NCBI GenBank assembly: GCA_963817895.1
Contig: CAWFQB010000003.1
Coordinates: 512,001 to 576,000 of the forward strand
Source: an uncultured Chthonomonadaceae bacterium
GTDB lineage: Bacteria > Armatimonadota > Chthonomonadetes > Chthonomonadales > Chthonomonadaceae
Length of the DNA stretch: 64,000 nt
Reading direction: 5' to 3'
The first letter of the stretch is position 1; each line of letters opens with the position of its first letter. Positions 1 to 14,730 of the stretch are shown here, piece after piece. The position numbers and the translations under genes were made by a program. The notes under the pieces were generated by a model, which was not told the DNA's origin, ran no database searches, and saw only the letters and a program-made list of their open reading frames with translations.

Positions 1-127
1 TGCTGTCAAAGGCGTTGTCGCCCGCCGCCGAGCGGTGCGTCAGGGCGCGGCGCAGGCGCGTCAAGTCCTTGAACTGTACGCCAAGCCGTTCCTGAAGTGG
101 GGTTAAATCCTGTTCGTCCGTAGGCAT
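1..127 (-). CDS. rnc: Ribonuclease III, 5' part (runs off the window)
   Basis: My translation of the minus strand from ATG 127 gives MPTDEQDLTPLQERLGVQFKDLTRLRRALTHRSAAGDNAFDS, which matches the RNase III N-terminal L..LG..F.D..LL..ALTHRS motif. Confidence 0.85.
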   Translation of the reverse strand, partial: MPTDEQDLTPLQERLGVQFKDLTRLRRALTHRSAAGDNAFDS

Positions 128-1286: not shown

Positions 1287-3056
1287 ATGTCACAAAGTCG
1301 CGCAGCGCGCCTGCTGTTTTTTGCCGTCATTGTCTTCGCGCTTGCCACCATCGGGCGCAACCTCTACCGTCGCCATCTCAACACGGCGCTCATTGCTGCC
1401 GTAGAAGCCGGAGATACATCCGAGGCGCGCCTGTTGCTGGCGAAAGGAGCCGATCCCAACGTCGGTAAGCCTCCAACCACTGAAAGTAGTGAGAGTACGC
1501 CTCTGCTTTCGCTTGTGCTGAGATTAAATTCTAACATGACCGGACAGGAGGAAGACATTGCCTGCTTGCTGATACAGCATGGCGCGCGTATTTCCGGGGA
1601 TAAGAATGAAACAAATTACCTGAGTTTTGCCTGTGACGCGGGCAGTACATCCGTCGTTCATTGCCTGCTTGAAAAAGGAGTTGATCCGAATGTCAGAAAT
1701 AGCTGGCTGGAAACTCCCGTGGATCGGGCTGTCAGGTACGGTTTCAGTGGCGATGAGAAGCCATCTCAGGTAGAAACAAGCGCCGACAGGAAACGCAAGC
1801 GGGTGAGTCATGAGTTGACGCGCCTGCTGCAGGCGTATGGAGCGCATTTCACGCTGCGCGACGCGGTTATGATGAATGATCTAACCACGACACGGGCTAT
1901 GCTGGATGCCGGGGCAAACATAGATGCGCGCGAGACAACTCAAACGTTAAATAGCCTCTCTTATGACAACACTCCACAGCAGGATGGCGTGGTGAAACCT
2001 TACGCTATCCCGAGCGCGCAACATGCTCAAGATGACAACACTCCACTGCAAGAAGGCGTAGCGAGAGGCTATTTGGAAGAATCGCGCCTTCTGCTGGAGC
2101 GCGGGGCGGCTATCAACGCGCGCTCTAAAGGCAACCCGCCGCCGCTTATCACCGCTCTCCTGCACAAACGCGCCGACCTTGTCAGACTACTGCTGGCGCG
2201 CGGGGCGGACGTGAACTTGTCTGGGGTTGATGACGACACCGATGACCCGGCGAGTTTCAGTGAGAACAACCTTCCGGCGCTTGCTCTGGCGATTGTATAC
2301 ATGCCGGAGTTTGTGCCGGAACTTCTCCAAAAGGGAGCGGACGTCAACGCGAAATACGGCGCAGCCTTGAAAGCGGCCATCGGGCAACACAACTTACCAC
2401 TGATACGGGAACTGTTGAAGCGCGGGGCCAACGTCAATCCGTCCCTGCCAATCCGTAAAGTATTTACGACTTCCCCTTCTGCCGGCGCGCGCAAACCGAT
2501 GAGTATGATGCTCGCTGTCGCCAGCATATCCTCTACTATGAACAGTCGGCCCGTTACCACTGCTACTAAAAGCCGGATAACTGCTTTTTCGCCGTTGATG
2601 CTTGCCGTCTGCAATGCTCCCGAATGTGAAGCCCTTTTGCTGCGGGCAGGGGCAAAGATAGGGCCGGATAAAAGTAGTATTCTGCCCGCTGTAGTTTTGA
2701 GCGGACACTCGGAACTGATGCCGCATCTGTTGACATTGGGAGCGGATGTGAACGGAACCGACAGGCATGGCGAAACCGCGCTCAGTCTTGCGGTTGTTCA
2801 CGCGCCTGCCGACGTCAAGTTTCTGCTCGAACATGGAGCCAAACCGAATATCGTCACGCGCTCGATGCCTTCCCGTACCCTGCTTTCACAGGCCGCCATG
2901 TCGGGCGAGATAGAGTGTGTCCGTCTCCTTCTGGCGCATCACGCCGAGGTGAACCTTCGCCTCGCGCAGGGTCACACACCGCTTTACTACGCCCGCAAAC
3001 ACAATCATGCCGATGTTGCCACGCTGTTGCAACAGGCCGGAGGCAAAGAGGAGTAG
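1287..3056 (+). CDS. Ankyrin-repeat protein with N-terminal membrane anchor
   Basis: Many LLxxGADVN/TPL repeats and a hydrophobic N-terminal segment. Start placed at MSQSRAA. Confidence 0.9.
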   Translation: MSQSRAARLLFFAVIVFALATIGRNLYRRHLNTALIAAVEAGDTSEARLLLAKGADPNVGKPPTTESSESTPLLSLVLRLNSNMTGQEEDIACLLIQHGARISGDKNETNYLSFACDAGSTSVVHCLLEKGVDPNVRNSWLETPVDRAVRYGFSGDEKPSQVETSADRKRKRVSHELTRLLQAYGAHFTLRDAVMMNDLTTTRAMLDAGANIDARETTQTLNSLSYDNTPQQDGVVKPYAIPSAQHAQDDNTPLQEGVARGYLEESRLLLERGAAINARSKGNPPPLITALLHKRADLVRLLLARGADVNLSGVDDDTDDPASFSENNLPALALAIVYMPEFVPELLQKGADVNAKYGAALKAAIGQHNLPLIRELLKRGANVNPSLPIRKVFTTSPSAGARKPMSMMLAVASISSTMNSRPVTTATKSRITAFSPLMLAVCNAPECEALLLRAGAKIGPDKSSILPAVVLSGHSELMPHLLTLGADVNGTDRHGETALSLAVVHAPADVKFLLEHGAKPNIVTRSMPSRTLLSQAAMSGEIECVRLLLAHHAEVNLRLAQGHTPLYYARKHNHADVATLLQQAGGKEE

Positions 3057-3130
3057 CCATAGAAAACCCCTCCCTTATGTATTCAATATCTGTCTATCCA
3101 AAGTAAAGGAGGAATACCTGTCTTTACACT

Positions 3131-4344: not shown

Positions 4345-4803
4345 ATGACACTGCAATCGAATCCTGTTTCTGTGGGACAATCCGCGCCCGATTTTACCTG
4401 CGCTTGCAGTGACGGCAGTACGCTGTCGCTGTCGGATTTGCGCGGCAGGGAACGGGTTGTCCTCGTGTTTTATCCGGGGGATAATACGCCTGTTTGTACT
4501 GCGCAGTTGTGCGCGTTTCGGGACGACTGGAGTCGGTTTCAGGCGCAGAATACGCGCGTGTACGGTGTTAATCCCGCCGGTCAGGGCAAACACGCGGGCT
4601 TTGTGGCAAAGCATCAGTTTCCGTTTCCGCTTCTGGTGGACGCGGGCGGGCAAATCGCCGCCGCGTATGGCTGCCGCCTGCTGTTCGGACTTATCCGCCG
4701 AACGGTAGTCCTGATAGACCGGCAGGGCAAAGTCGCCTATATACAGAGGGGCAATCCCGCGCCGCAGGAACTGCTGAACGTTCTCGCCGCCCTACAGGAT
4801 TAA
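4345..4803 (+). CDS. bcp: Peroxiredoxin, BCP/PrxQ family
   Basis: APDF...FYPGDNTPVCTAQLCAFRD (PxxxTxxC motif). Confidence 0.88.
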   Translation: MTLQSNPVSVGQSAPDFTCACSDGSTLSLSDLRGRERVVLVFYPGDNTPVCTAQLCAFRDDWSRFQAQNTRVYGVNPAGQGKHAGFVAKHQFPFPLLVDAGGQIAAAYGCRLLFGLIRRTVVLIDRQGKVAYIQRGNPAPQELLNVLAALQD

Positions 4804-5028
4804 ATGAATTAGATGGATGGTTCAGCGCGTACAAACGTTGTGCGCCGCAGGATATTATGCCCGTGAGGAGGCAAGTTTTCGTTGATGAATCTACCTGATG
4901 GAGCCGAAGTTGCTCCCGTTTTGCCCGCCCATTTAGCCACTGCCCTTGCCCCGACGCTGAATAAACCGCGCGGACACGACAACGGGGATGCCGAGAACAC
5001 AGAACATCGCGCAGGGCGTGGGCGCAAT

Positions 5029-6586
5029 ATGCCTGATGACACTGATGCAGGGAATGGCCGTCCGAGCGCGGTTGTGATCGGCGCGGGGTTGGGCGGACTG
5101 TCCGCCGCCATTCATCTGGCGCGGCAGGGCTGGAAAGTGGATGTTATCGAGCGCAACGCGCGCAGCGGCGGGCGCATGAACGTGATTCGGGAAAAAGGCT
5201 TCACCATTGACATGGGGCCGACCATGCTGATGATGCCCGAAGTGATCGAAAACACTTTCAGCGCCTGCGGGCGCGACATCAAAGATTACCTGAGCCTGGA
5301 CGCGCCTGACTCCCGCCTATACGATTGTCTGGCCGGACGGCACGACGCTCAACATGGGCGGCTCCATTGCGGAAATGATCGCGCACGTGCAGCAGTTCGC
5401 GCCCGAAGACGCCGAGCGCATCGCGCCCGTTCATCGCCAAAATGAGGGCCAAGTACGACAACGCCCGCCACAATTTCATCGAGCGTTCCTTTAACAGCCT
5501 GCGCGATATGGCGCATCCCAACACCCTGCAGCGGACTGGTCAAGCCGCTGCCCCTGGAAAGCGTGTACAAGTTCGTCAGCAAAAACATTCAGCAACGAGA
5601 AACTGCGGCAGGCGTTCACGTTCCAAACTCTGTATCTGGGCATGAGTCCCTACAACTGTCCCTCTATCTACGCCCTGCTTCCTTATATCGAGATGGAGTT
5701 CGGCGTCTGGTTTCCCAGAGGCGGCACGATTGCGCTTGCCGACGCGCTGGAAAAACTGCTGCGCGAATTGGGCGGCGAACCTGCACTTTAATCAGCCCGT
5801 CGAGCGCATCGATGTGGAGGGCGAGCGGGCGACCGGCGTTCGTACCATGCGACGGGCGCGTACTGGAACGCCGATGTGGTCGTGTGCAACCTGGACGTGC
5901 CGATGGCGTACAAAACCCTGCTGCCGCCCCGAAGTTCGGCGCAAAGCACACGGACAAGCGCGATTGCAAAAGCACGATTTCGGCTGTTCCGGCTATCTGC
6001 TGTATCTGGGCGTGAAGAAAATCCCGAGCGACTGGGGCCATAACATGATCGTGCTGAGCGACGATTACGAGCAGATTATTGACGATATTTGCGTGAAGCC
6101 AGATTCTGCCCCGCGACCCGGCCATGCACGTCTGTATTCCCACCCGCACCGATCCCTCCCTTGCGCCGCCCGGCCATGATGTGGTTTACGTTCTGGTTCC
6201 CTGCCCGAATACGCGACGCCGCTATTGATTGGGAGCGCGAGGCGCCTCTGCTGCGCGAGCGCGTCCTGGACAAACTGGAAGCGACGGGCCTGCCCGGCCT
6301 GCGCGACAACATCGTGTTCGAGCGCGAATTCACGCCGCCGGAATTCGAGTCGCTGTATGGCTGCTACGCGGGCGCGGCGTACAGCGGCCTGACGCTCGGC
6401 ATTTTGCAGTCGGCCTACTTCCGCCCGCACAGCCGCAGCGAGGACGTGCGCGACCTGTACTTCGTCGGAGCCAGCACTCATCCCGGCGGCGGCGTTCCCA
6501 TCGTCCTGACATCGGGCCGACTGGCGGCCGAAGAGATCAACGCGGAACGAGATCACGCGAAGATAGAGACACAGGACACGAGATGA
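5029..6586 (+). CDS. Phytoene/diapophytoene desaturase, CrtI/CrtN family (several frameshifts, probably sequencing errors)
   Basis: VVIGAGLGGLSAA FAD motif, FTIDMGPT and C-terminal LYFVGASTHPGGGVP, spread over several frames. Alternative start at 4882. Confidence 0.85.
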
Positions 6587-6705
6587 TCAGATAGGAGAAT
6601 AGACAGGATTAACAGGATTCGTTCAGGATTACAGCGAGCAACGATCGTATCTTCTGAGCTTTTCCTCTGTGCCTCTGTGTCTCTGCGTAGCGGATGGTGA
6701 ACTTT

Positions 6706-8233
6706 ATGGACACTTTTAGTTCGTACAATCCCGGAACGGCGCGTTGCTCGGAACGTTTCCTGTGAGTCTGCGACGAGGTGGACTGCGCGGTTAGACGGCA
6801 CGGGCGCGGCAAGCGGCATGGGGCGCAAGGACGGCGGCAGAGCGTGTCGCGGCGTTGCGAGAGTTTGCGGGACAGTGTCGCGCAGGATGCGGACAGGCTG
6901 GCGCGATGTGTGTCGCGCAGAGATCGGCAAGCCGCTTCAGGAGGCGTATGGCGCCGACGTGCTGGCGTTGATTGGCGGGCTGGACTGGCTTATCGCGAAT
7001 CTGCCGCGCCTGCTTGCGCCGCGCCGTATTCCCGGCGAAAAGCGGGCGCACTTGCAGCCCATGCCGTATGGCGTTGTGGGCGTGATTGGAACGTGGAACT
7101 ATCCCCTTTTGCTGGATGGCGACGGCGATTGCATGGGCATTGGCGGCGGGCAACGCGGTGGTATGGAAGCCTTCGGAATTGGCGACGGCTTCCGCGACAA
7201 TGCCTCCATGCGCATTTTGAGCGGGCCGGCTTGCCGGTCGCGATGGTGACGGGGGATGGCAAGACGGGGCAGGCGTTGTGCGATACGCGGAACACCGCAT
7301 AGATAAACTGGCGTTTACGGGCGGCGTGGCGACGGGGCGCGCGATACTGGCGCAGTTGGCGACGCGGGGCATTCCGAGCGTGATGGAACTCAGCGGCAAT
7401 GACGCCCTGATTGTCTGCGCGGATGCCGACATAGAAGGCGGCGGCGCAGGCGGCGGTGTGGGCGCGGATTTGCAACGCGGGGCAAAGCTGCGTATCGCCG
7501 CAACGGATTTATGTCGAAGCGCAGGCGTATCCGGCGTTTGTGGCAGCCTGCGAGAAAATCATTAAGGACTTGCGGGCGGGCGTGGATTATGGCCCGCTGC
7601 GAACGGACGCTTTTCGCAAACGCGTGCATGGCCTTGTTAGCGGATGCCGTTCGACGCGGGGCGCGATCTGGTGTCAGGCGGCGCATTGTCTTGAACGATG
7701 CCGAATTTGCAGATGGTTTTTACTATGCCCCGACGCTGCTTGGCGGATTGCGCGCGACGACATGCCGATCATGCGGGAGGATTTCTTCGGCCCGGTATTG
7801 TGCGTTCGCGCTGTTCGGGATGCGGACGAAGCCGTTGCGCTTGCGAACGCGAATCCGAATGGGATTGGGCGCAAGCGTGTGGACGCGGGACATCAGGCAG
7901 GGCAGGCAAATTGCGGCGCGACTGCAGGCGGGCGTGGTCACGGTCAACATGGAAACACTGATGACGGGACGCGCCCCGGCCTGCCGTTTGGCGGCATGGG
8001 CGCGAGCGGATGGGGGCGGCAGCGGGGCGCGGCGGGGCTGGACGAGTTCGTACAGTGGAAAACCGTCTGCTGGCAGGGCAAGGTAGGGGCGCAGCGGCAC
8101 GTCTTTCCCTATCGCGATGCGACCATGCCCATTCTGCGCGGCCTGATCGCGCTCGAAAACCGCGCAGGGCGTGAAAGCGAAAATGCAGGCGGTGCGCGAA
8201 CTCGGAAATGCGGCCCGCAATGGAACAGGCTAA
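6706..8233 (+). CDS. Aldehyde dehydrogenase, probable diapolycopene aldehyde oxidase (AldH/CrtNc-like), frameshifted
   Basis: PYGVVGVIGTWNYP, FTGGVATG, MELSGND, NAGQSCVS, EDFFGPV and LPFGG motifs across frames; lies between two CrtI-family genes. Confidence 0.8.
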
Positions 8234-8385
8234 AAACAACAAGCAACCGCCTAATGTCTCTTGAGCAAAGCGTGATAAGCAGATGTGTCCGCGCATGCGG
8301 ACATTGGGCGAACGCCCCATGGCAAAGAAATTCATTTCGTTGCCCGTAATCGGCAACGCAACGATTACGGAGAAGCAGAGTGTCA

Positions 8386-9948
8386 ATGGCAAAGATAGCG
8401 GTAGTGGGCGGCGGATTGGCGGGGTGCGCGGCGGCGGTGCGGCTGGCGCACGCGGGCCATGAGGTGACGCTGTTTGAGAAGAACGCGCATCTGGGCGGCA
8501 AAATGAACGTGTGGGAAGAGGGCGGCTACTATTTCGACATGGGGCCGACCATCATCACCAAGCCCGATGTGCTGGACCGCCTGTTTTCCGATGTGGGCGC
8601 AGGCGCGAGGATTATCTCGATCTGGTGTCGCTCGATCCGCAGTGGCGCGCGTTTTTCGCCGACGGCAGCCGGTTCGACCTGTACACTCAGCCTGCAGGAA
8701 ATGACGGCGGAACTCCAGCCGCTTCGCGCCCGACGAAATTGCCAACTACCTGCAATTTCTCGCCTACAGCCAGAAGATGAACGACATCTCGGACCGCTGG
8801 TTCTACTGGAAGTCGTATGGCGGCATCATGGACATGATGCGGGCCAACCCGATGAACATGCAGTCGCTGGGCATTGCCGATGAACATGGACCCGCTCACC
8901 ACGATGCATCAGGCCGTGCGCAAGCATTTCAAAGACGAGCGACTGGCGCAGCTGTTCGAGCATTTCGTGCAGTACGTCGGCTCGTCGCCGTTTGTCGCGC
9001 CCGCCATTTTGTGCCTGATCGCGTGGGTGCAGATCGGCGCTGGGCTGCTGGTATCCGATGGGCGGAACGGGCGAAATCGCCCGCGCCCTGACGCGGCTTG
9101 TGCGACGAGTTGGGCGTGGACGTGCGCTTGAACACGCCCATCGCAGCGCATCGAAACCGCAGAACGGCAGAGTGACGGGCGTCACGCCGGAAGACGGCAG
9201 TATTGGAAGCGTTCGATGTGGTGGTCGCCAACTCCGACATCGTGCGGACGCTGGAACAGATGCTGACCGGCGCGGACGCGAAAGCTTATCCGCACAAGCA
9301 CGAAAAGCAGCTGGAACCCGCCTGTTCGGGCATCGTGCTGTATCTGGGCTGCAACAAAACGTGGCCGCAACTGAAGCACCACGATTTCTACTTTTCCGCC
9401 GACAGCGACGAGGAGTTCCGCGACCTGTACGAGCGCAAAGTTCCGCACGAAGACCCGACCTGCTATCTGGCCGTGCCGTCCCTCACCGACCCGCAGGTCG
9501 CGCCGCCCGGCTGCACCGCGCTGTACGTCCTGGTGCATTGCCCCTACCTGACGGACGCTTTCGATTGGGAGAAGGAGACGACGCGCTACCGGGACGTGAT
9601 CATCGACAAACTGGAGCGGAGCGGCCTGACCGGGCTTGCGCGACAGCATTCAGGTGTCGCGCACGATCACGCCCCGCGATCTGGAACGGATGTACTGGGT
9701 GAACCGGGGCGCGATTTACGGCGTGGTCACGCAGCGCGGCCTCAATTCCGCCTTCAAAACCGCCAACCGCAGCGACCTGATTAAAGGGCTTGTACTGGGC
9801 GGGCGGCAGCGTCAACCCCGGCCCCGGCGTCCCGATGGTGCTGATGTCCGGCCAGATCGCCGCCAACTGCGTCCTCGAAGATTACGGGCGCAACGATACC
9901 GCTACTATCGGCAGTCGTTCGGAACTGGCAGGGGCAACACGCGGGTAG
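8386..9948 (+). CDS. CrtI-family carotenoid oxidase, CrtP/CrtNb-like, frameshifted
   Basis: VVGGGLAG, YFDMGPTI, QYVGSSP, EPACSGIVLYLG, GAIYG and NPGPGVPMVLMSGQIAA motifs; last frame ends at TAG 9946-9948. Confidence 0.8.
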
Positions 9949-9974
9949 TTTTCTCCGGCTTCCAAACAGCGCAA

Positions 9975-10308
9975 AATAACAAAGCGTCCCGGCTCTCTTT
10001 TGTGGAGAACCGGGACGCTTTTGATATGTGGGTACAATAATGTGGGGTGAGACGCTCACGACGCCTCACCCCAAAACAAACTCGAGTGGTCAGCGTTTCA
10101 CCGCTGATTTTCTCGCAGAAAGGAGAAGCTAATGACGAGCTTCCTGTTCTGGCTGGCTGTTGCCGCCAACGTCGTCACCCTCGGCACGGCAATTTACTTG
10201 CTGTGCCGCTGGATCAAACGACAACAGCGCAAACGCCAGCGCCGACGCTCTAAAGTGGTTGAGAGTTTAGGCCGTTCCTGCCGGGGACTTTACATTTTCG
10301 GCAGGGAC
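9975..10308 (-). ncRNA. Candidate antisense antitoxin RNA (ends approximate)
   Basis: Inferred from the perfect promoter, a 5' hairpin (CCTGCCG..CGGCAGG) and the bidirectional terminator; no credible minus-strand CDS here. Confidence 0.4.
9982..10022. terminator. Bidirectional intrinsic terminator
   Basis: AAGCGTCCCGG...CCGGGACGCTTTT, with a T-rich tract on both strands. Confidence 0.75.
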
Positions 10309-10386
10309 ACCTTTATTATAGAGGGTTTTGCTGAAATTGTCAATATCGCCGCGCAAGGTCAAGCCAATGAGAAACGTGGTCATTAG
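10132..10386 (+). CDS. Small membrane peptide, candidate type I toxin (may really end at TAA 10251-10253)
   Basis: Strong SD AAAGGAG. MTSFLFWLAVAANVVTLGTAIYLLCRWIKRQQRKRQRRRSK is one TM helix plus a polybasic tail. Confidence 0.6.
   Translation: MTSFLFWLAVAANVVTLGTAIYLLCRWIKRQQRKRQRRRSKVVESLGRSCRGLYIFGRDTFIIEGFAEIVNIAAQGQANEKRGH
10315..10343 (-). promoter_or_regulatory. Consensus sigma70 promoter antisense to the small peptide ORF
   Basis: Minus strand reads TTGACA-atttcagcaaaaccctc (17 nt)-TATAAT. Confidence 0.75.
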
Positions 10387-10544
10387 CAGGTAATTTCTTG
10401 ACGCGAACTCTGATAGCGCAGGAGTTCGCGTTGTGAAACGCGAATGAAGACGCGCCTTTATCGTAAATTTTTCGCCGCCATCGTCCTGCCGCCCACTTCA
10501 AACCATAATCGGTGACGGCTGCGCAGGTTCATTAAGGAGTTGAC

Positions 10545-12207
<1,663 letters not shown>

Positions 12208-12377: not shown

Positions 12378-13586
12378 TTATGCTTTGGGGAGGCTGGGCA
12401 TTGTTACGGCCTGATGGATAACAACTGCTTGGTACAATTTTTGCCAGTGGCTTTGACTTTTGCCAATGGAATCTGGCTTGCGGCCTAATTCATCACTGGT
12501 TTCTTTGGTTGCTTGTATTAACTGAACAGCCACACTACTCCACAGTGCCAGCACATCATGAAAGCTTCCGCGCCATTTGCAGTCCCCGGTTTCGGGATCA
12601 TCTACGACCATCCAGCGAAAAGCGGCAAGCATTGGAAACAGTACCCCTCGAAATAGTCGGCATGTTGCCTTGTCATTAATGAAAGGAAACTCAAATGGTT
12701 CTTTGCCAGCATTCTCGATAAATGTAAGAGAAGCGGCCTTACGATTGCCACCCGATGCGTTCCAGAGCTTACGCGCCTGAGAGCTAACAGTGTCGTGAAG
12801 TTTGAGAATGTCCTTAAGAATTGGCCGTAAACGTTTATAAGAGTTTGGGTCTTTCAAATAACTGTTAAGCACATTCTCCTTTCCAGTGTATGCTCTCACC
12901 GGGTGTACCGTTTTGGCATGTGGATACAGAGTGGTATTGAACAGTTCTAAAAACCTCAGTATATCGGCTACATCATAAATACCCTCATCATTCTGCCGAA
13001 AAGCAATCTGACTCAGGTAGGGTTCATCCTTAAGTTCTTCCTTCATCCAGTCGAACTTATCGGCGTAGTTTGCAAGCGTCATTTCATTCACTTGCACCGC
13101 CTTATTAAGGCCGCCCGCTATTTCTGTTGCTAGAGAGGAATCAACACCCGTTAATATCTCAAATTTTACGAACTGAACAATCTTGTTTTCAGAGGATGTA
13201 TTGCTCTCGACAATGTGCGCCTGATTTCCGCGTATGATCTCGTATGTATGTCCGCCATCCACGATTCCCTGCACATCGGACTCACTCGACGAGAAGTAAA
13301 CATCGTAAAAATCGTCATCGCGCTTTGTGACTTTATCAGCCAGAACCGTGATCCCCTTATTTTTTAAATGGAAGGTGTTGGACGTTCCATCCTCATTGCG
13401 CAGATGGCGGGCGACTTCTTTGTAGATGCGTTTGTCAATGTTCTGGGAACGAACGTTAGACTTGTCTTTGGGGATGTTCGTCGGTACGTCTTCCACATTG
13501 CAAAGCAGAATGTGGCGTTCCGCACCGGGCAGAACGGGATCGGGGATACGACGCGCAAAGCGGACTTTGAAGGTGCAAACAGTCAT
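12378..13586 (-). CDS. AIPR family protein (abortive-infection phage resistance, ParB-like fold)
   Basis: NVR, FHLKNKGIT, IVDGGHT and GLN..VQV motifs; visibly AT-richer than its neighbours. Confidence 0.8.
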   Translation of the reverse strand: MTVCTFKVRFARRIPDPVLPGAERHILLCNVEDVPTNIPKDKSNVRSQNIDKRIYKEVARHLRNEDGTSNTFHLKNKGITVLADKVTKRDDDFYDVYFSSSESDVQGIVDGGHTYEIIRGNQAHIVESNTSSENKIVQFVKFEILTGVDSSLATEIAGGLNKAVQVNEMTLANYADKFDWMKEELKDEPYLSQIAFRQNDEGIYDVADILRFLELFNTTLYPHAKTVHPVRAYTGKENVLNSYLKDPNSYKRLRPILKDILKLHDTVSSQARKLWNASGGNRKAASLTFIENAGKEPFEFPFINDKATCRLFRGVLFPMLAAFRWMVVDDPETGDCKWRGSFHDVLALWSSVAVQLIQATKETSDELGRKPDSIGKSQSHWQKLYQAVVIHQAVTMPSLPKA

Positions 13587-13674
13587 TGTATATTTCTCCC
13601 TGCATGTCAGTTCCACTGACTGCAAAAACATGTGTAGTTGCATCCACAACTCACAATTATCATCACTCACATAC

Positions 13675-13753
13675 AATATACCAGTATTTTGTACGCCCGT
13701 CAAGTCCGGTATGAAGTTGACGACTTGACAAACTACTTTAACAGGCGTACACT
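13675..13753. promoter_or_regulatory. Back-to-back sigma70 promoters for AIPR (-) and the DUF433 operon (+)
   Basis: Minus: TTGACG-17-TATATT (13703-13675). Plus: TTGACA-17-TACACT (13725-13753). Confidence 0.7.
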
Positions 13754-13802
13754 ATCCTGAAAACAAGAGCAAATCGGCTGTACCGTTTGCAAGAGCAATA
13801 AC

Positions 13803-14135
13803 ATGACTATCACAATTGAAATGCAGAAGCCGCCTATACAAATGGACGCCGATAATGTCTTGCGTGTTGGAAATACGCGCGTGACATTGGACACGGTCAT
13901 CGGTGTTTTCAACGAGGGCGCAAGTGCGGAAGAGATCGCGCAACAGTATCCTTCTCTTCATCTAGCTGATATTTATGCTGTTATCAGCTACTACCTACAA
14001 CAACGTGAGCAGGTCGAAGCCTATCTGACAGAACGACAAAAGCAGGCAGAGGAAGTGCGCTGCCTAAACGAAGCGAAATTCAGTACACAAGGACTAAGAG
14101 AAAAACTGCTCACACGTCAATCGAAAAAGATTTAA
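13803..14135 (+). CDS. DUF433 antitoxin (VapB45-like)
   Basis: RVGNTRVTLDTVI...GASAEEIAQQYPSLHLADIYAVISYY. Confidence 0.9.
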   Translation: MTITIEMQKPPIQMDADNVLRVGNTRVTLDTVIGVFNEGASAEEIAQQYPSLHLADIYAVISYYLQQREQVEAYLTERQKQAEEVRCLNEAKFSTQGLREKLLTRQSKKI

Positions 14136-14143
14136 CATCTTTA

Positions 14144-14286
14144 GAGCGTTTAGAAAAAGTAAAATCCTGCGTTTCTATTCGGCCTCAATGTCGCCTCGCA
14201 ACGTATTGAAAGCGTTGCGCTTTCACTTCGATGATGCGCCTGCACGGGGCAAAGTAGGCATCAGAAAAGACTTTTTCTAAACGCTC
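14144..14286. mobile_element. MITE-like element, family B, inside the TA operon
   Basis: Perfect 17-bp TIR GAGCGTTTAGAAAAAGT / ACTTTTTCTAAACGCTC with a TTA direct repeat on both sides. Confidence 0.8.
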
Positions 14287-14367
14287 TTACTGAACTGTTA
14301 GGACTGAATTGTTGGCGGGCTATGGATTTAGCCACGCTGTAGAGCAGTCAGTCTGGAAAGAACGGAC

Positions 14368-14730
14368 ATGCAACAGGTATTTTTGCGTTTCGCAGCAGAC
14401 GAGAATTTCAACGAACAGATAGTGCGCGGGCTTCTCCGGCGTCAGCCTGATCTGGACATTGTGACAATTCGTGAGGCAGGACTTTCGGGCAAGACCGATC
14501 CCGCTGTACTAAAGTGGGCTGCGGATGAAAATCGTGTCGTGCTGACGCATGATGTGACAACCATGACCATGTACGCTTATAAGCGCGTAGAGCAAGGATT
14601 GGCTATGCCGGGAGTGTTCGAGGTCAAGCGCACTACGCCGTTGCTTGAGATTATTGAAAGTTTGCTGCTCATTATTTCAGCAAGCGAACCTGAAGAATGG
14701 GAAGGCCGCGTTGTTTACCTGCCGTTGTAA
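14368..14730 (+). CDS. DUF5615 PIN-like toxin (VapC45-like)
   Basis: FAADENF...DPAVLKWAADENRVVLTHD, downstream of DUF433. Confidence 0.88.
   Translation: MQQVFLRFAADENFNEQIVRGLLRRQPDLDIVTIREAGLSGKTDPAVLKWAADENRVVLTHDVTTMTMYAYKRVEQGLAMPGVFEVKRTTPLLEIIESLLLIISASEPEEWEGRVVYLPL

Follow-up and report, generated by a model that had tools for sequence, protein, structure and literature searches.

We found that a cassette of approximately 310 bp, comprising an ORF, a structured leader, and a perfect minus-strand promoter, recurs in the genome of an uncultured Chthonomonadaceae bacterium and in those of its relatives. This conserved multi-copy cassette probably represents a new family of type I toxin-antitoxin modules, in which the toxicity of the peptide and the antisense RNA are predicted. 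The copy studied here lies in a stretch of 64,000 nucleotides, hereafter called the window. The anatomy of the cassette is conserved, its peptide is under selection, its hairpins covary, and its copies are dispersed and undergo decay. The first-pass annotation had suggested an unannotated type I family at this locus; the anatomy and evolution support this well, whereas the 84-aa length, the antisense end, and the closest known system required revision.

The ORF (10132–10386, 84 aa) and its SD (AAAGGAG, 10119–10125) were confirmed as quoted in that annotation, and the TTGACA-17-TATAAT element on the minus strand (10343–10315) reached a promoter score of 12/12. The hairpins claimed for the leader (10043–10073 and 10091–10106) and for the predicted antisense start (10274–10308) were also found in the window sequence. 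The features of the locus are as follows.

9981–10021, no strand assigned: bidirectional terminator 3' of the desaturase-like gene; possible backstop for the antisense RNA; outside the dispersed cassette.
10033–10038, plus strand: predicted mRNA -10 element TACAAT, with a poor -35 element; inferred start at approximately 10044.
10035–10308, minus strand: predicted antisense RNA of approximately 270 nt, complementary to the whole mRNA; may extend to approximately 9972.
10043–10073, no strand assigned: hairpin H1, mRNA 5' end; predicted antisense-RNA terminator.
10083–10114, plus strand: leader hairpin H2, with a CAGCG/CGCTG core at 10091–10106; absent from the metagenome copy L047.
10116–10151, plus strand: hairpin H3, in which the SD (10119–10125) and spacer are paired with codons 3–7 and the AUG is in the loop.
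10132–10263, plus strand: family-length peptide gene of 43 codons and the stop position; helix at approximately residues 4–25, followed by an Arg/Lys tail.
10183–10207, plus strand: coding-region hairpin H4, the apex of a longer predicted rod.
10247–10266, plus strand: stop-codon hairpin H5, weakened in the window by the change at 10261.
10261–10263, plus strand: GAG replacing the TAG stop of the family; the frame continues to 10386 across the terminator and the antisense promoter.
10274–10319, no strand assigned: hairpin H6 and U-tract; predicted to terminate the mRNA and to form the first hairpin of the antisense RNA.
10315–10343, minus strand: consensus sigma70-type promoter TTGACA-17-TATAAT; predicted antisense start at approximately 10308.

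Perfect promoters like that at 10343–10315 occur 72 times in the 7.48-Mb genome, the window site being one of them. We also collected the SD-led hydrophobic ORFs of 20–88 aa in the genome (n = 106); a promoter of at least 11/12 faces only the window ORF and its paralog, in a facing-promoter search window that was set after the locus had been seen. The arrangement of the ORF and the facing promoter is real and far beyond chance. A role of this promoter in serving pgi or in opposing the upstream gene was rejected, because the strand is wrong and the dispersed copies have no such neighbours.

In the window, the cassette is located between a gene for a desaturase-like FAD oxidoreductase and pgi. 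The G001 orthologue of the former matches Pfam Amino_oxidase; the carotenoid label of the gene is our presumption. The terminator at 9981–10021 was found in the syntenic copies of G001 and G002 and was unaligned in the C10 paralog and G023. Window positions 4800–10650 contain dense single-base insertions relative to G001 and G002, with approximately 1 per 135 nt in the gene that precedes the cassette, and the desaturase-like, aldehyde dehydrogenase, and pgi genes are frameshifted by insertions, as in an unpolished assembly. A low-GC stretch follows pgi (12378–14730) with an AIPR-family gene and a DUF433 and DUF5615 (PIN-like) pair, which resembles a type II toxin-antitoxin pair. An RNase III gene (window 1–97, G000:C3:511443–512097) is at the left edge of the window, approximately 10 kb from the cassette.

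The search for paralogs and homologues proposed in the first-pass annotation recovered the ORF, leader, and facing promoter together, in a paralog and in relatives. The paralog (G000:C10) is 86% identical over 294 nt. Homologues are present in G001 and G002, which belong to the same genus and carry the cassette behind the same upstream gene, and in G023. G320 gave 10 matches, three of them cut by contig ends, between unrelated genes; two of its copies (L081 and L084) are near genes that presumably encode Fic/Doc-like and PIN-domain proteins. The neighbours of the copies are mostly unrelated between loci, and the copy number ranges from 0 to 10 within the family Chthonomonadaceae. A match at E 1e-4 was obtained in 5 of 401 genomes of the phylum, all of them Chthonomonadaceae, and true peptide matches in 4 of the 41 other Chthonomonadaceae genomes. 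The distribution is narrow and patchy. Two of five metagenome loci were true members. The profile search yielded seven clusters at 90% identity with the first alignment and eight representatives at 50% identity, seven of them real, with a wider one; none of the cluster members that were looked up is named. None of 185 pattern hits in viral contigs was true, and none was found in plasmids or phages. Weak matches in 14 genomes failed the E 1e-4 threshold under the wider profile; hits in G005, G037, G008, G017, and G019 were also dropped, L048–L050 are the starts of long proteins, and P0011 is a 631-aa repeat protein.

The intact peptides have 36–43 aa, a hydrophobic segment with a Kyte-Doolittle 19-mer value of 1.6–2.1, and 7–10 Lys and Arg residues (11/11 intact copies), and the AlphaFold model of the peptide is a single helix. 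The class features of type I systems were taken from excerpts of PMC8594479 and PMC2887945. One of them, a length of 20–60 aa with one hydrophobic helix and a charged C-terminus, is found in the intact copies; the window's own allele has 84 aa against this range. Uncorrected pN/pS values are 0.12–0.50 for the four pairs involving the window and 0.07–0.48 for 20 of the 21 pairs in the second clade, the remaining pair having no synonymous change. These ratios indicate that the peptide is under purifying selection. No member (0/13) reached the cut-off in Pfam or NCBIfam (best E 0.017 and 0.019), the best E in PHROG was 0.0057 for the 13 members, with none matching any named type I toxin, and Rfam gave sub-threshold matches only, none at the gathering score. 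The top score in the ESM Atlas, 0.83 to unnamed clusters, is a lead only. In the predicted mRNA rod, the codons of the basic tail are paired with the hydrophobic codons; therefore, the toxin-like composition may partly follow from the RNA structure.

Decay of the copies is frequent. Early stops interrupt three of nine G320 ORFs, two decayed copies in G013 keep H1 and H6 with the SD or start lost, and a second copy in G002 keeps only the 5' half. The peptide side is thus commonly affected by early stops, loss of the SD or start, and read-through, which supports a harmful product. It could be argued instead that the peptide is a non-toxic small membrane protein regulating a partner protein and that the antisense RNA only tunes its level. 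We consider this unlikely, because the copy number varies from 0 to 10 within one family among unrelated neighbours, copies often decay on the peptide side, and only 4/41 other genomes of the family have true peptide matches; however, purifying selection and a single helix fit a regulator equally well, and the three genus copies at the window site are syntenic behind the same desaturase-like gene. The decayed G013 copies are at L076:1470–1800 and L080 (G013:C1, approximately 653.6 kb and 1392 kb), and one of them retains an antisense -10-like element. In the second G002 copy (L037:1400–1710, G002:C63), the promoter, 5' hairpin, SD stem, and first 17 codons are intact, the 3' part is different (67-aa frame), and no convergent promoter was seen there.

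The folding of the locus was examined as the first-pass annotation had proposed. The predicted mRNA (10043–10318) has z = -7.0, and none of 200 shuffled sequences was as stable; the mRNA and antisense folds have z = -5 to -10 in all six copies tested. A type I mRNA typically has 150–400 nt with a sequestered SD, a 5' stem-loop, and a terminator, and the predicted structure of approximately 270 nt shows these elements with covariation. A hairpin is present at the H1 position in 17/17 copies, with energies of -14.5 to -25.9 kcal/mol and differing sequences. H4 has eight pairs, five with compensatory changes among 12 sequences. H6 (10274–10308) has 11 pairs, none broken in 14 sequences and six with compensatory changes, and at least five T occur in the following 10 bases in 9 of 14 full copies. 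A YUNR motif is at the mRNA terminator loop in 12/14 copies against 6.1 expected, counting the loop with 2 nt per side in copies that are related.

H3 may hold the SD inaccessible. Two modes of SD occlusion had been claimed: pairing with the sequence downstream, which is H3, was predicted in 17/17 copies folded across that stretch, whereas the upstream TTCTC anti-SD was rejected as not general among the copies. In a 14-row alignment, 90.5% of the cells pair at H3 versus 36–56% when the pairing is slid, with A-U/G-C covariation, and the Ser3 codon is AGY in 17/17 copies. Against synonymous recoding, the H3 energy is below the mean in all copies and the fraction is 0.05 or less in 7/17; the support per copy is modest.

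On the opposite strand, the genus copies have both antisense hexamers perfect (4/4), with 4 of 17 spacer columns invariant, and the second-clade copies have a TG-extended antisense -10 element in 7/9. On the sense strand, a -10-like hexamer is located a few nt 5' of H1 in most copies. The antisense promoter scored higher than the sense promoter in 9 of 10 copies scored for both; the antisense search covered a wider stretch than the sense one. As judged from its sequence, the first hairpin of either strand looks like the terminator of the opposite strand. On the antisense side of H1, at least five T occur in the next eight bases in 11/17 copies, and on the sense side in 0/17. An A-rich stretch at the corresponding place accompanies only 3 of the 72 perfect promoters, a control that is imperfect because these -10 boxes are rich in A as well. 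The stretch of A taken here for an antisense U-tail also lies in the sense promoter and may serve the promoter alone. The terminator at 9981–10021 is bidirectional as the first-pass annotation had stated; its proposal there as a possible antisense end was revised, because termination at the 5' leader hairpin H1 appears more likely. With H1 as its terminator and the facing promoter as its origin, the antisense RNA would cover the entire mRNA. The antisense tail of H1 in the window is weak (4 T of 8), so that here the RNA may run on to 9981–10021, perhaps as a backstop. An internal antisense terminator at 10244–10225 was rejected, as it is not evident in other copies.

RNA contigs of relatives were found in two metatranscriptome runs of one study. 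Their starts lie at H1, at approximately 10036–10039 (31–34 nt before 10070), and for two of three the end falls within H6, at approximately 10294–10296; the DNA contigs continue past both points. These contigs, which are unstranded, from relatives, and from one study, fit weakly with a discrete RNA of approximately 260 nt from either strand. None of the sequencing runs contained the window's own strain (best share 0.09).

The strong folds on both strands and the strong promoter on the non-coding strand would also be expected if a structured non-coding RNA or a selfish hairpin cassette transcribed from that promoter were the functional unit and the ORF were secondary; the two G013 copies that retain the end hairpins without the ORF point in the same direction. 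However, pN/pS stays under 0.5 throughout, two distant clades have preserved the SD, spacing, and frame, and there is no match to the other hairpin repeats of the genome or to Rfam. We therefore regard this as improbable.

As a toxin-antitoxin module, the cassette would produce an mRNA of approximately 270 nt from the weak promoter, with the SD and AUG locked in a local hairpin. The stronger convergent promoter would yield an abundant full-length antisense RNA, from the mRNA terminator hairpin to the 5' hairpin. The two RNAs may first contact each other at the terminator loops (H6) and would then be cleaved by RNase III; rnc is present in the genome and is frameshifted in the assembly. If the antisense RNA dropped, the 43-aa peptide could insert into the membrane, with the basic tail on the inner side, and stop growth.

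The 84-aa length of the window ORF results from a TAG-to-GAG substitution, not from an indel. Codon 44 is TAG in the paralog and G002 and GAG in the window, and base 10261 is T in 6/6 contigs of relatives that cover it (runs X1, X2, and X5). The first-pass annotation had postulated an indel error with a TAA stop at 10251–10253. This cannot be sustained, because the ORF aligns with the paralog and G002 without gaps and the TAA is out of frame, in the homologues too. A pure assembly error at GAG is possible, because the upstream neighbour gene has 11 indels in 1489 nt relative to G001. However, almost every local error is a single insertion, and the same Glu is found in P0015, which comes from a separate (Logan) assembly and likewise continues across this hairpin (77% over 75 aa). 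On balance, we consider it somewhat more likely than not that the window GAG is a natural allele. P0013 also reads through.

Without the stop, the window allele would give a non-stop mRNA subject to tmRNA tagging, or an extended peptide of 84 aa. Excerpts of PMC8309996 report that AapA1 and Lpt lose their toxicity when fused at the C-terminus; the window copy is therefore probably blunted by its read-through. The intact allele is the C10 paralog. It is very improbable that the frame is meant to cross the terminator, as in a non-stop mRNA of the ArfA/BrfA type whose product accumulates only when tmRNA rescue fails. A tmRNA gene was found in the genome, and the Glu at codon 44 in the window and P0015 and the read-through in P0013 agree with such a design; however, most members stop before the terminator (13/13 rows of alignment A3, as called), the KGKG-type motif, which we take to be an ArfA feature, is absent in 20/20 sequences, and the extension is a mere translation of hairpin and promoter DNA.

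The first-pass annotation had compared the layout with Fst, TxpA, BsrG, and AapA. The cassette is closer to CD0956.2/RCd10 of C. difficile and to ibs/sib, and by analogy of layout, not of sequence, CD0956.2/RCd10 is the closest mapped system. According to excerpts of PMC5961336, the antitoxin 5' end there coincides with the mRNA 3' end, and a long form of 283 nt ends at the toxin start. CD0956.2/RCd10 and CD2907.1/RCd9 also share with the cassette a hydrophobic N-terminus, a basic C-terminus, a sequestered RBS, and multiple copies, some adjoining CRISPR arrays (excerpts of PMC5961336). In contrast, their toxins have 50–53 aa, are Lys-rich, and belong to a different phylum, and the major antitoxin has 134 nt with an internal terminator, of which no conserved equivalent was seen in the cassette (same excerpts). 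No homology to toxins of this type was found via PHROGs, NCBIfam, or phage records, the comparison being made through libraries only.

In the Ibs/Sib systems of E. coli, the antitoxin likewise spans the whole coding region and the RBS, five copies exist, and RNase III is implicated (excerpts of PMC4147584). However, the repeat has approximately 140 nt (PMC4147584, in part), and IbsC is far shorter and without a positively charged C-terminus (PMC8309996, in part). The cassette has no Pfam or Rfam match. TxpA and BsrG resemble the cassette peptides in a TM helix with a charged tail (38–59 aa), a convergent antisense RNA, and RNase III cleavage, and bsrE/SR5 in YUNR loops at first contact; the difference, according to the same excerpts (PMC8464778, PMC8167048), is that TxpA, BsrG, and BsrE overlap their antitoxins at the 3' end only, by 114–123 nt, and the antitoxin has a long non-overlapping part, whereas the predicted antisense RNA of the cassette begins at the mRNA terminator. 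In Fst/Ldr, represented by par of pAD1, the promoters converge, a stem-loop sequesters the SD, and the terminator loop of the mRNA carries a U-turn motif (excerpts of PMC7472228), as in the cassette. The Fst motif P/D/S/TxxxG(C) is absent in 19/20 cassette sequences; Trp at 25–29, compared with the conserved Trp before a charged cluster in Fst/Ldr, occurs in 8/20, nearly all from the window's clade. Self-blastn of the locus revealed no DRa/DRb repeats, and a short RNA II with a shared terminator is excluded because the antisense promoter adjoins the terminator and leaves no space for it. As far as the libraries contain them, no profile match was obtained to TxpA/BsrG/BsrE, SprG, AapA, Ibs, Hok, or other named families. 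Type I antitoxin RNAs have 60–200 nt (PMC8594479, in part); the predicted RNA of approximately 270 nt is longer than this range and near the 283-nt form of RCd10 (PMC5961336, in part).

The family also shows an occasional link with CRISPR, as judged from the loci collected. In G023, cas3 and cas5d flank the cassette; they belong to a cas3-cas5d-csd1-cas7-cas4-cas1 locus (type I-C) that also has an array, and the embedded region is G023:C4:90430–91200 (L004, L008). There, 140 nt separate H6 from a perfect antisense promoter, and the interval contains three degenerate repeats that retain 16, 18, and 21 of 37 bases, with 10, 10, and 11 of the last 11 bases kept. Cas5d cuts repeats leaving an 11-nt handle. 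A fourth repeat, at G023:C4:90972, matches the array repeat at 34/37 bases, and its spacer agrees at 14 of 15 scored positions with a site behind TTC, which we take to be the type I-C PAM, at 90948–90968, the best match in 34 kb. This target is 50 nt upstream of the fourth repeat, between divergent promoters; on the repeat/cas5 strand, it overlaps a candidate promoter, and it is approximately 30 nt upstream of the peptide -10 element. The repeat-end motif occurs at most once in each of 17 other loci, and the window copy has no CRISPR context. The metagenome locus L047:559–970 (mirror 2710–3116) belongs to a fold-back record that is 90% self-inverted along its entire length. Three CRISPR-like repeats are found there on the strand of the antisense promoter, approximately 230 nt upstream of it.

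The G023 copy resembles the CreTA/CreR/CrePA systems in its toxin-like gene among cas genes, in its degenerate repeats, and in a spacer with a partial match to a promoter region close by, as excerpts of 10.1101/2023.03.03.530964 and PMC12737573 describe them; a repeat-like unit with a spacer matching a PAM-flanked promoter site, as in CreTA/CreR, is thus found in G023. In the same excerpts, CreT is described as an RNA and CreP as a KilA-N protein, whereas G023 would have a membrane peptide and a cis-antisense RNA. We tentatively consider, as a doubtful extension of the toxin-antitoxin reading, that a mobile type I cassette was captured by CRISPR-Cas and placed under both antisense and CRISPR control, to be released on loss or inhibition of Cas; loss of the stop could add gating by tmRNA. 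In G023, Cas5d could cut the antisense RNA at the degenerate repeats into a mature form, and the fourth repeat would guide Cascade to the PAM site beside the toxin promoter.

Type I systems have hitherto been described only for Proteobacteria, Firmicutes, and Tenericutes, and a cyanobacterial candidate was added in 2025 (PMC12390103, in part). Of six look-alike candidates in Microcystis, only two inhibited E. coli (excerpts of PMC12390103). In the literature, no report of a type I system from Armatimonadota was found; the candidate tables of PMC2887945 and T1TAdb could bear on the novelty. The intact, broken, and read-through alleles at hand are suitable for tests, and the search rule of an SD, a short hydrophobic ORF, and a facing consensus promoter is cheap, leaving 2 of 106 candidates in this genome. 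The CRISPR-embedded copy could join type I control with CRISPR-repressed toxin control. If the assignment is true, the cassette would extend type I systems to Armatimonadota with no sequence link to known families, and such a family would support the view that their narrow range reflects a search bias.
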